In this document: positions 27,186-28,003 of the stretch, in pieces
Numbering within the stretch: the stretch's first letter is position 1
Layout of the letters: every line of letters begins with the position of its first letter
IMG/VR virus record: IMGVR_UViG_3300027566_000007
Span: 1-64,000 of that record
Strand: one strand, 5' to 3'
Length of the DNA: 64,000 nucleotides
DNA from: a virus
Lineage: Duplodnaviria > Caudoviricetes
Made by a program: the position numbers and the translations under genes
Notes under the pieces: model-generated
What the model saw: only the letters and a program-made list of their open reading frames with translations
Databases searched by the model: none
Told to the model about the DNA's origin: nothing

Positions 27186-27339
27186 TGCCCTGTTTTACAG
27201 GGGTATAGTTAGAATGTGTTTATCTCAAGCATAGTGTACGACGATGGCTCACGGATTGAGTTAGAATGTCCCTACAGACAAGATAAAGCCCTGGTAAATC
27301 CAGGGCTAAAATAAAAAACGGGTTGGAAATAATCATCGT

Positions 27340-27463
27340 GCCGTACCTCAAAGATGAGGGCAGTCAATTATACCATAGTAACACCCGACAAAGTAACACC
27401 TTGAACCTCAGATAACACCCCCTAAAGTTCAAGACTGCTCAAGGTTCGAATCTTGATACGGCC
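27340..27463 (+). ncRNA. tRNA-like element E4 with 67-nt loop
   Basis: GCCGTA/TACGGC, CCTCA-AAGA-TGAGG, GCAGTC/GACTGC, TCAAG-GTTCGAAT-CTTGA; TAACACC x3 in loop. Confidence 0.85.
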
Positions 27464-27615
27464 TTTGTTTCAAGTTCACGCTTGAGACAAAATCAATAAT
27501 GGATTTGAAGAAACTGTAAGGATGTATCGAATTGTGCCCGGTGTTGGGATTACACAACTTAAAATGTCTTAATATGTCTTAGTAATAGAGGTCCCTGGGA
27601 TAGCCGGGGACAAAT

Positions 27616-27665
27616 GCCATAATCTGTTTGGAGATTCTGGGAGGGTTCGATTCCTTCTTATGGCT
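27616..27665 (+). ncRNA. tRNA-like element E5 (50 nt)
   Basis: GCCATAA/TTATGGC; GAGGG-TTCGATT-CCTTC; 18-nt linker. Confidence 0.8.
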
Positions 27666-27800
27666 TTCGGGAATTTTCCCCGTAAAAATATATAAATAGC
27701 TTCTAGTGGAGGTATCTAAAAAAGCGTAACGTGAGAAAACTGATATCAAAAATATAAGCCAAAAACTTGTACGAACCAGCCCGGTAATCCGGGCACAAGT

Positions 27801-27881
27801 CTCCTTATAGGCTTAACGGTAAACCGGCCACTGGTCCGAGATGGCTAGAGGTAATACGAGGTTCAATTCCTTGTAGGGAGA
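27801..27881 (+). tRNA. Atypical tRNA/pseudo-tRNA E6 with 11-nt anticodon loop
   Basis: CTCCTTA/TAGGGAG; D-arm GGCT-TAACGGTA-AACC; GGCCA-CTGGTCCGAGA-TGGCT; CGAGG-TTCAATT-CCTTG. Confidence 0.65.
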
Positions 27882-28003
27882 TCCGGGACAACCCGGACAA
27901 AATAATACAAACAAAAAAATTTAGGCAACTCCTAAACCCTTGAATCTCTGAAATTGGTCAAACGAAAGACGCTGATGCTTTATAAGTTTCAGCGTCTCAA
28001 CGT

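Follow-up and report, generated by a model that had tools for sequence, protein, structure and literature searches.

T-elements are tRNA-like processing signals known from plant mitochondria (Forner et al. 2007, PMC1920247). In Haloferax volcanii a t-element lies upstream of the 5S rRNA and is cut by tRNase Z, and in vivo RNase P and tRNase Z free an engineered CRISPR RNA (crRNA) from between two t-elements, leaving it with a 5'-P and a 3'-OH end (PMC4326828). The 5'-phosphate is left on the downstream piece by tRNase Z and the 3'-OH on the upstream piece by RNase P (PMC4326828). Here we describe an array of seven tRNA-like units, E1 to E7, and the hairpins that bound the spacers between them, in a 64-kb stretch of a tailed-virus genome (the window, positions 1 to 64,000). 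The window is the first part of a 73,340-bp IMG/VR virus record (IMGVR_UViG_3300027566_000007; CheckV completeness 100%). Comparison with related viruses and with host tRNA genes indicates that the hairpins are selected, virus-specific RNA hairpins of the plus strand.

Like the window units, t-elements are degenerate, non-decoding tRNA folds that lie beside other RNAs, and in t-elements RNase P and tRNase Z define RNA ends. The window differs in that it holds a tandem array of seven such folds in a virus, with non-coding segments between them and with cleavage that is predicted. It also has a dedicated, covarying hairpin at each predicted cut site, a feature that we have not found described for t-elements.

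In murine gammaherpesvirus 68 (MHV68), TMERs (tRNA-microRNA-encoded RNAs) consist of a viral tRNA-like element followed directly by precursor microRNA hairpins, which tRNase Z releases (PMC4838037). The window array shares with them a viral tRNA look-alike that is followed directly by a hairpin. However, TMERs belong to an animal herpesvirus, where each is a separate gene for RNA polymerase III, and their hairpins, ~60 nt in size, are cut by Dicer. The window array has stems of 5-12 bp, no microRNA pathway, a layout that suggests a polycistronic transcript, and a second hairpin ahead of the next unit.

In MALAT1/MEN-beta with its mascRNA, RNase P cuts at a tRNA-like element and makes a 3' end that is protected by upstream structure. 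The proposed layout of the window likewise has a protective structure directly ahead of a tRNA-like element. In MALAT1 the cap takes the form of a triple helix, in a eukaryotic nucleus, whereas the window caps are simple GC hairpins at both ends; the likeness is one of analogy, not homology.

To our knowledge, little has been established about non-coding RNAs of archaeal viruses, and our literature search found no description of hairpin-capped tRNA-like arrays in them. Phages and archaeal viruses do carry clusters of tRNA genes, some with tRNA pseudogenes (PMC6333295). As in those clusters, tRNA-derived genes stand together in a tailed-virus genome here, and relatives of the window virus hold real tRNA-Gln and tRNA-Ser genes in the same slots. 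The window differs because none of its units is recognisable as a tRNA, and because its spacers are 120-155 nt long, hairpin-capped and partly under purifying selection.

The array region (26800-28060) is 1.25 kb without open reading frames (ORFs). It lies between small early ORFs and a replication-type ATPase gene. The virus also encodes a tyrosine integrase and a disaggregatase-related protein. Related proviruses sit inside two Methanosarcina chromosomes, G117 and G110 (sequenced genomes of 5.0 and 5.8 Mb), and one relative is located in a Methanosarcina metagenome-assembled genome (MAG). We therefore take the host to be Methanosarcina.

Hairpins at the spacer ends

The sequence-only reading of this region had described four spacers that begin, and in three cases also end, with a hairpin. 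The spacer lengths (154, 152, 135 and 122 nt) and hairpin offsets are correct on re-measurement, and all eight hairpins fold, with energies of -5.0 to -16.6 kcal/mol. Those past a unit are trailer hairpins, those ahead of the next unit leader hairpins:

27188-27202, plus strand: trailer hairpin at the 5' end of spacer E3-E4, beginning 2 nt past discriminator 27185; CCCTG-TTTTA-CAGGG; -7.1 kcal/mol
27288-27306, plus strand: internal GC hairpin of spacer E3-E4; GCCCTGG-TAAAT-CCAGGGC, then an A-rich tract; -13.4 kcal/mol
27464-27491, plus strand: trailer hairpin at the 5' end of spacer E4-E5, beginning 0-1 nt past discriminator 27463; stem of 11-12 bp; -12.1 kcal/mol
27591-27611, plus strand: leader hairpin at the 3' end of spacer E4-E5, ending 4 nt ahead of E5; GTCCCTGG-loop-CCGGGGAC; -14.5 kcal/mol
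27668-27682, plus strand: trailer hairpin at the 5' end of spacer E5-E6, beginning 2-3 nt past discriminator 27665; CGGG-AATTTTC-CCCG, 4 bp; -5.0 kcal/mol
27765-27800 (inner stem 27779-27794), plus strand: leader hairpin before E6, ending 0 nt ahead of it (6 nt for the conserved inner GC stem); inner stem GCCCGG-TAAT-CCGGGC; -11.7 kcal/mol inner, -15.5 kcal/mol whole
27882-27897, plus strand: trailer hairpin at the 5' end of spacer E6-E7, immediately (0 nt) past discriminator 27881; TCCGGG-ACAA-CCCGGA; -9.7 kcal/mol
27967-27997, plus strand: leader hairpin at the 3' end of spacer E6-E7, ending 6 nt (CAACGT) ahead of E7; -16.6 kcal/mol

We compared each spacer with 1000 dinucleotide-preserving shuffles for the energy of its first 30 nt, of its last 42 nt and of the whole. 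In the order E3-E4, E4-E5, E5-E6 and E6-E7, the observed energy is reached with p = 0.02, 0.000, 0.11 and 0.002 for the first 30 nt, and with p = 0.80, 0.001, 0.001 and 0.000 for the last 42 nt. By this measure, six of the eight ends have more structure than their shuffled versions, and whole-spacer z-scores range from -2.4 (E3-E4) to -4.9 (E6-E7). The value of 0.80 agrees with the earlier observation that E3-E4 lacks a 3'-end hairpin and carries its second hairpin internally. A global fold of 27060-28060 retains all hairpins and is otherwise uninformative.

Relatives of the array were collected in two ways. The neighbouring ATPase (protein search and profile scan) led to metagenome and Logan contigs (L008, L002, L003 and L015), to IMG/VR records L009, L010 and L011, and to proviruses L026 (= L010) and L060 (= L089). 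A DNA pattern (T loop plus E6-type hairpin) added L092/L097, L093, L094, L095 and L098. The single ATPase protein searched against viral contigs gave no relatives, and blastn against GenBank phages gave none.

About ten related Methanosarcina viruses and proviruses have such hairpins next to their tRNA-like units and real tRNAs. On the 5' side of a unit, a GC-rich leader hairpin (often CCCCGG...CCGGGG) is followed by 4-9 nt that usually end in U. On the 3' side, the discriminator is followed after 0-2 nt by the trailer hairpin (often YCGGGACMACCCGR) and then by an A-rich tract. The slot between them holds a genuine tRNA-Gln(TTG) or tRNA-Ser(TGA) in several relatives, and elsewhere a degenerate tRNA or a minihelix of 41-54 nt. 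Model R1 scores 56-66 bits in L010, L011, L015, L003, L008 and L060 (E6-type trailer hairpin). Among the viruses with this layout, the neighbouring ATPase is just 35-56% identical.

The tRNA genes of the host look different. We compared 26 units from 8 viruses with 30 chromosomal tRNA genes of a host genome (Mann-Whitney). A trailer hairpin of -5 kcal/mol or lower within 28 nt past the discriminator is found at 14 of the 26 viral units and at none of the 30 host genes (p = 3e-5), and all 14 begin 0-2 nt from the discriminator. Leader hairpins of -8 kcal/mol or lower in the 36-nt leader occur at 17 viral units versus five host genes (p = 2e-5). They mostly end 4-9 nt before +1, usually with U at -1, like many host tRNA leaders. 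Host tRNA trailers are T-rich. Terminal units (E7-type and the final tRNA-Gln) have no trailer hairpin, and E1-type units have neither hairpin.

Base changes in the trailer hairpins preserve pairing. In alignment A3, which comprises eight T-arm-plus-trailer modules, 95.5% of cells are paired; none of 500 shuffles does as well, and slid registers reach 34-70%. Three of the six pairs of the E6-type hairpin are changed on both sides, with no disruption in six in-register sequences. The hairpin after E5 (27668-27682) is out of register with the E6-type hairpin in this alignment, and is invariant in L008 and L093. After E4 (27464-27491), the allele of L008 and L093 has two pairs altered on both sides, from U-A to C-G, which preserves the stem. 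This stem contains two G·U pairs, and its minus-strand fold is weaker by 5 kcal/mol.

The remaining hairpins of the window have relatives as well. The one at 27188-27202 has counterparts after E3-type units in L008, L002 and L015, the internal one at 27288-27306 is identical in L008 and L093, and the one at 27882-27897 is the type member of the YCGGGACMACCCGR family. The leader hairpin at 27591-27611, with an invariant stem and a variable loop in L008 and L093, belongs to the CCCCGG/CCGGGG family (also in L015, L003, L010, L011, L009 and L060). Before E6 (27765-27800), the outer A/U-rich stem abuts the unit and is less conserved than the inner one; L093 keeps the inner stem with an altered loop and has one outer pair broken. 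E7 is preceded by an analogous hairpin of other sequence in L015 (GGGCACTGAT...ATCAGTGCC) and in L009.

The pairing is also strand-specific. The plus-strand folds contain 27 G·U pairs and the minus-strand folds 4, and 33 of 42 hairpins are more stable as plus-strand RNA, a count that is somewhat biased because the hairpin list was compiled on the plus strand.

Two other identities of the hairpins were rejected. Host repeats, similar to repetitive extragenic palindromes (REP) or miniature inverted-repeat transposable elements (MITE), would be scattered, but YCGGGACMACCCGR occurs just once in G117 and once in G110, both times inside the provirus, and is absent from two other genomes. Long-range pairing of leader with trailer, as in a bulge-helix-bulge (BHB)-like processing stem, does not fit L015, where the trailer hairpin has changed to CACGG/CCGTG with internal compensation and the leader hairpin shows no matching change.

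Oligo-T is the termination signal of archaeal RNA polymerase. We counted 37 A-runs (A5 or longer) and 4 T-runs (T5 or longer) within the arrays; the window array has 10 versus 0, the whole window 280 versus 205. The first plus-strand T-run lies 10-11 nt past the last unit in the window (T5 at 28059-28063) and in L015, and in L092 a T7 run follows the last tRNA. This avoidance of T-runs fits read-through of the whole array as one long plus-strand transcript. Nor do the hairpins resemble terminators: no T-run follows any plus-strand end hairpin, and a terminator scan flags none on this strand, which counts against the possibility, raised in the sequence-only reading, that they behave as terminators. 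Some hairpin loops contain T4.

On the minus strand, three array hairpins (27307-27287, 26899-26878 and 27052-27033) are followed by T-rich tails and look terminator-like. They might stop antisense transcription into the array.

Proposed caps and candidate products

The layout suggests a processing scheme. The array would be transcribed as one plus-strand precursor. E1-E7 would be degenerate tRNAs that retain only the acceptor stem and the T arm, the parts needed by the host enzymes that process tRNA ends. RNase P would cut just ahead of each unit, tRNase Z just past the discriminator. The trailer hairpin would then start 0-2 nt from the 5'-monophosphate end made by tRNase Z, and the leader hairpin would end 4-9 nt before the 3'-OH end made by RNase P. 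Judging from what is generally known of exonucleases, hairpins so close to the RNA ends would deny them a single-stranded landing site; the hairpin caps may in this way shield the inter-unit RNA from 5'-3' and 3'-5' exonucleases. The Haloferax crRNA is an archaeal precedent for release of this kind. All of these steps are inferred for the window: a single transcript, cuts by RNase P and tRNase Z, protected ends, and a function of the 120-155 nt RNAs. That the hairpins are RNA end caps at the predicted RNase P and tRNase Z cuts is, in our judgement, an even call.

The four spacers described above are:

27186-27339, plus strand: spacer E3-E4, 154 nt; identity to L008 0.896, with a 54-nt insertion in L008
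27464-27615, plus strand: spacer E4-E5, 152 nt; identity to L008 0.63, 59 of 152 columns variable; fast-evolving except for its two terminal hairpins
27666-27800, plus strand: spacer E5-E6, 135 nt, 39% A; identity to L008 0.963, 9 of 135 columns variable
27882-28003, plus strand: spacer E6-E7, 122 nt, 38% A and 16% G; 4 of 122 columns variable, the most conserved segment of the array

Variable columns were counted in a three-way alignment of the window with its close relatives L008 and L093. E5-E6 and E6-E7 jointly vary in 13 of 257 columns (5%). At third codon positions, the same three genomes differ in 23 of 56 sites of ORF 28108-28275 and in 8 of 41 sites of ORF 28278-28400 (19.5-41%). Because the variation of the two spacers is 5% against 20-41% at neighbouring third codon positions, we conclude from the alignment that they are under purifying selection over their whole length in the close lineage, beyond what a promoter or a pair of hairpins needs. 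They are also more conserved than unit E6 between them (11 of 80 columns variable). Spacers E1-E2 and E2-E3 are 97-100% identical to L008, and E3-E4 is partially conserved with L015.

A small hairpin in the interior of E3-E4 (CTCA-CGGAT-TGAG, 27248-27260) is kept with a conserved loop in the distant L015 (1665-1680). There are few such interior elements.

The genomes are mosaic, and recent exchange of the E5-E7 block may lie behind the spacer identity. The faster-evolving E6 in the middle of the block argues against such an exchange. Another reading denies the locus any present function: the array would be a decaying viral tRNA cluster, with hairpins that are leftovers or due to chance. In its favour, the units include real tRNAs in relatives and remnants as short as 45 nt in the window, and E4 is degenerating. 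Nevertheless, we consider decay very improbable, given the compensatory changes in acceptor stems, T stems and hairpins, a variation far below that of synonymous sites, and a layout that persists across viruses although their ATPases have diverged.

The inter-unit segments could be virus-encoded small RNAs of 120-155 nt, cut by host enzymes from one precursor and stabilised by hairpins, a reading of the sequence that we put forward tentatively. Former tRNA genes would then have been reduced to pure cutting signals, and the RNAs would possibly act early in infection on host or viral targets, a proposal that we hold just as loosely. Such a system would be, by analogy, a natural parallel to engineered tRNA-guide-RNA arrays and to the Haloferax crRNA flanked by t-elements.

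Several observations weigh against the end caps and against spacer RNAs as the products. In relatives, genuine tRNA-Gln and tRNA-Ser genes stand between identical hairpins, and the tRNA is presumably the product there. By this comparison the hairpins belong to the viral tRNA cassette generally and do not single out the spacers as the main product. Change is fast in E3-E4 and E4-E5 and includes insertions and deletions. Beyond the close lineage, nothing is common to the spacers except the hairpins, the A-rich tract and a short TCTRG/GGATGAG block. The high identity of the two conserved spacers rests on three sequences from mosaic genomes. The trailer hairpin of E5 (27668-27682), with 4 bp and a shuffle p of 0.11, is weaker than the other seven, a 5' hairpin is missing from the first spacer (the one after E1) of every array, and E3-E4 lacks one at its 3' end. 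Antisense matches of the spacers in the virus genome are at most 12-14 nt long, which is chance level.

The sequence-only reading had proposed that the spacers, if RNase Z and RNase P excise the tRNA-like units, would be end-protected RNAs and may be the real products. Our analysis supports it in part, with strong geometry for end caps. The former proposal gains from hairpins that stand at the predicted tRNase Z and RNase P ends and are conserved, compensatory, plus-stranded and virus-specific, and it loses from the same hairpins around real tRNAs. For the latter, purifying selection on E5-E6 and E6-E7 stands against the lack of family-wide sequence conservation and the fast evolution of the other two spacers; we regard it as possible, but not probable.

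In the main alternative, the hairpins may instead serve the tRNAs and tRNA-like units, and the spacers may be inert linkers without T-runs. The hairpins might insulate the fold of a unit from its A-rich flanks, set where RNase P and tRNase Z cut, or prevent trimming and leave the unit together with its hairpin as the stable product. This would explain why identical leader and trailer hairpins surround tRNA-Gln(TTG), tRNA-Ser(TGA) and degenerate units alike, and why little else of the spacers is kept outside the close lineage while E3-E4 and E4-E5 change fast. The hairpins missing from terminal and E1-type units would, however, be unexpected if every unit needs them. Moreover, host tRNAs are processed without such hairpins, and the units on either side of E5-E6 and E6-E7 are less conserved than these two spacers. 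On balance we find a purely unit-serving role rather doubtful, though well worth considering.

The order of motifs past the trailer hairpin allows for yet another role. About 22 nt beyond it, behind the A-rich tract, seven spacers of six viruses, as well as L092, contain a TCTRG or GGATGAG block:

27920-27925 and 27702-27707: TCTRG/GGATGAG block in the window
L010 ~466-476, L015 ~1905-1915, L060 ~1488-1478 (minus strand), and L092: the same block in relatives

The block could be a transcription start or a protein-binding site. If an internal archaeal promoter lies behind each trailer hairpin (a TATA-like tract with a start ~22 nt on at TCTRG), every unit would have a transcript of its own, and the hairpins would act at the level of transcription, as insulators or as signals for 3' ends. 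The regular succession of hairpin, ~22-25 nt of A-rich sequence and TCTRG/GGATGAG points in this direction, and so does the TATA-like AAAAATATATAAAT at 27685-27698. Yet no T-run follows the units, several A-rich tracts contain C and make poor TATA boxes, and G·U stems with compensatory changes indicate pairing in RNA. Conservation in the close lineage also covers the whole spacer, a longer stretch than a promoter takes up. Internal promoters, and with them hairpins that act in transcription, are thus unlikely.

The cargo between the hairpins varies. With conserved flanks, the same slot holds a degenerate tRNA in L094 (1073-1145), a tRNA-Gln in L096 (= L011 3206-3277) and a tRNA-Ser plus a tRNA-Gln in L098 (579-748), which suggests cassette-like exchange of viral tRNAs. 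These swaps between the same leader and trailer hairpins, together with the tyrosine integrase, would suit hairpins that act on DNA as boundaries (recombination sites) of exchangeable tRNA cassettes. But homologous recombination in the conserved flanks accounts for the swaps just as well, the surroundings of the units show neither direct repeats nor att-like duplications, and strand-specific G·U pairing at a fixed 0-2 nt from the discriminator fits RNA processing better. A role as DNA boundaries is accordingly quite improbable.

If the end-cap scheme is right, this virus family relies on host RNase P and tRNase Z to cut a single transcript into several RNAs with hairpin caps, and the array shows tRNA genes evolving into processing signals. 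The scheme would also supply a natural rule for stabilising the RNAs released from tRNA-punctuated arrays, with one hairpin 0-2 nt away from the cut at the 5' end and another 4-9 nt away from the cut at the 3' end, useful for expression tools in methanogens. If the hairpins only aid tRNA maturation, they are a modest addition to viral tRNA biology. The related proviruses in G117 and G110 make the model directly testable.

The tRNA-like units

The five units that adjoin the four spacers are:

27071-27184, plus strand: E3, tRNA-like unit; 7-bp acceptor stem GCCGTGC/GCACGGC, T arm CCAGG-TTCAATT-CCTGG, discriminator C27185 (script scan)
27340-27462, plus strand: E4, tRNA-like unit, paralogue of E3; GCCGTA.../...TACGGC, weak T stem, discriminator C27463 (read from the sequence)
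27616-27664, plus strand: E5, minihelix-type tRNA-like unit, 49 nt; GCCATAA/TTATGGC, T arm GAGGG-TTCGATT-CCTTC, discriminator T27665
27801-27880, plus strand: E6, near-cloverleaf unit, 80 nt; 11-nt 'anticodon' loop, discriminator A27881 (script scan)
28004-28048, plus strand: E7, minihelix, 45 nt, last of the array; GTCCATG/CATGGAC, no trailer hairpin

A 7-bp acceptor stem, a T arm of the form GGTTCRAnnCC and the lack of a usable anticodon arm give E3, E5, E6 and E7 the fold of a t-element. None of the window units has what a canonical tRNA has, namely a cloverleaf with a 7-nt anticodon loop that tRNA finders see. ARAGORN reports no tRNA in the window array. Rfam gives no match at the gathering score there; the tRNA family reaches at most 16.3 bits against a cut-off of 29 bits, and the other matches are weak and at chance level (E up to 10).

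A long C/A-rich insert replaces the D and anticodon arms of E3. The acceptor stems of its homologues in L002, L015, L009 and L060 differ in sequence and are still complementary. E4 evolves fast (identity to L008 0.78), scores just 13.5 bits with model R1 and has no counterpart in L015. E5 corresponds to a unit of 97 nt with a D arm in L015. Its match to the Rfam family mascRNA-menRNA (RF01684; 18.8 bits, E = 1.3) is weak and not significant, and reflects shape. The 11 variable columns of E6 among the window, L008 and L093 are mostly in loops or keep structure (e.g. U·G to U-A in the acceptor stem). E7-type units also terminate the arrays of L015, L009 and L095.

Two derivations of the units were considered. 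As remnants of integrase att sites they would not be expected to pair, and this origin is rejected because each unit has a complementary, co-varying 5' strand. E5-type units, as possible derivatives of tRNA-Cys, share only U73 and the T loop with the host tRNA-Cys. Array DNA has no significant match in a Methanosarcina MAG. Among 177 genomes of the family it has three short matches only (in a related provirus, beside host tRNA genes, and in low-complexity sequence).

The 11-nt 'anticodon' loop of E6 (27831-27841) has three different sequences in three close relatives (CTGGTCCGAGA, CTAGTCAAAGA and CTAGTCTAAGA), next to spacers that are nearly invariant. A hot spot of change covers E4 and spacer E4-E5 (27340-27615 compared with L008 and L093). 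In L008, E4 has a degenerate T loop and a 16-nt deletion within the unit, and the adjoining spacer E4-E5 has a deletion of 20-26 nt. L008 also carries an insertion of 51-54 nt ahead of E4 that repeats the first bases of E4 (CGTGCC). On Methanosarcinaceae chromosomes we find tandem sets of 3-4 tRNA-Cys(GCA) genes (L064 877-1525, L069 721-2008 and L070 1318-2411) that score 29-37 bits with the viral model. Each of these genes is followed by a weak hairpin and an A-rich trailer.

Other features of the locus

A small ORF of 30 codons runs from ~27976 across E7. We reject it as coding, since L008 carries non-synonymous changes in it and L015 has no start codon. By eye, the spacers contain no convincing C and D boxes of C/D-box small RNAs. 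The one host match to a spacer (L027) is low-complexity, A/T-rich intergenic DNA. Among the virus proteins there are no partner proteins of the Ro60/Y-RNA or RtcB kind.

Mosaic exchange is visible inside the ATPase gene, where window 29141-29909 and L008 2819-3626 cannot be aligned as DNA; the two viruses are otherwise 87-91% identical.

Motifs of the form ACCUCC or CCUCC, which resemble the anti-Shine-Dalgarno end of 16S rRNA, occur after the first unit of every array and in leader-hairpin loops:

26862-26869 and 26899-26906 in the window: ACCUCC/CCUCC after the first unit
L015 1384-1430, L009 1725-1735, L002 5893-5925 and L003 6183-6205: ACCUCC/CCUCC after the first unit
L011 3183-3193, L092, L094 and L098: ACCUCC/CCUCC in leader-hairpin loops

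Spacer E5-E6 contains the complement of ACCUCC, GGAGGU, at 27709-27714.

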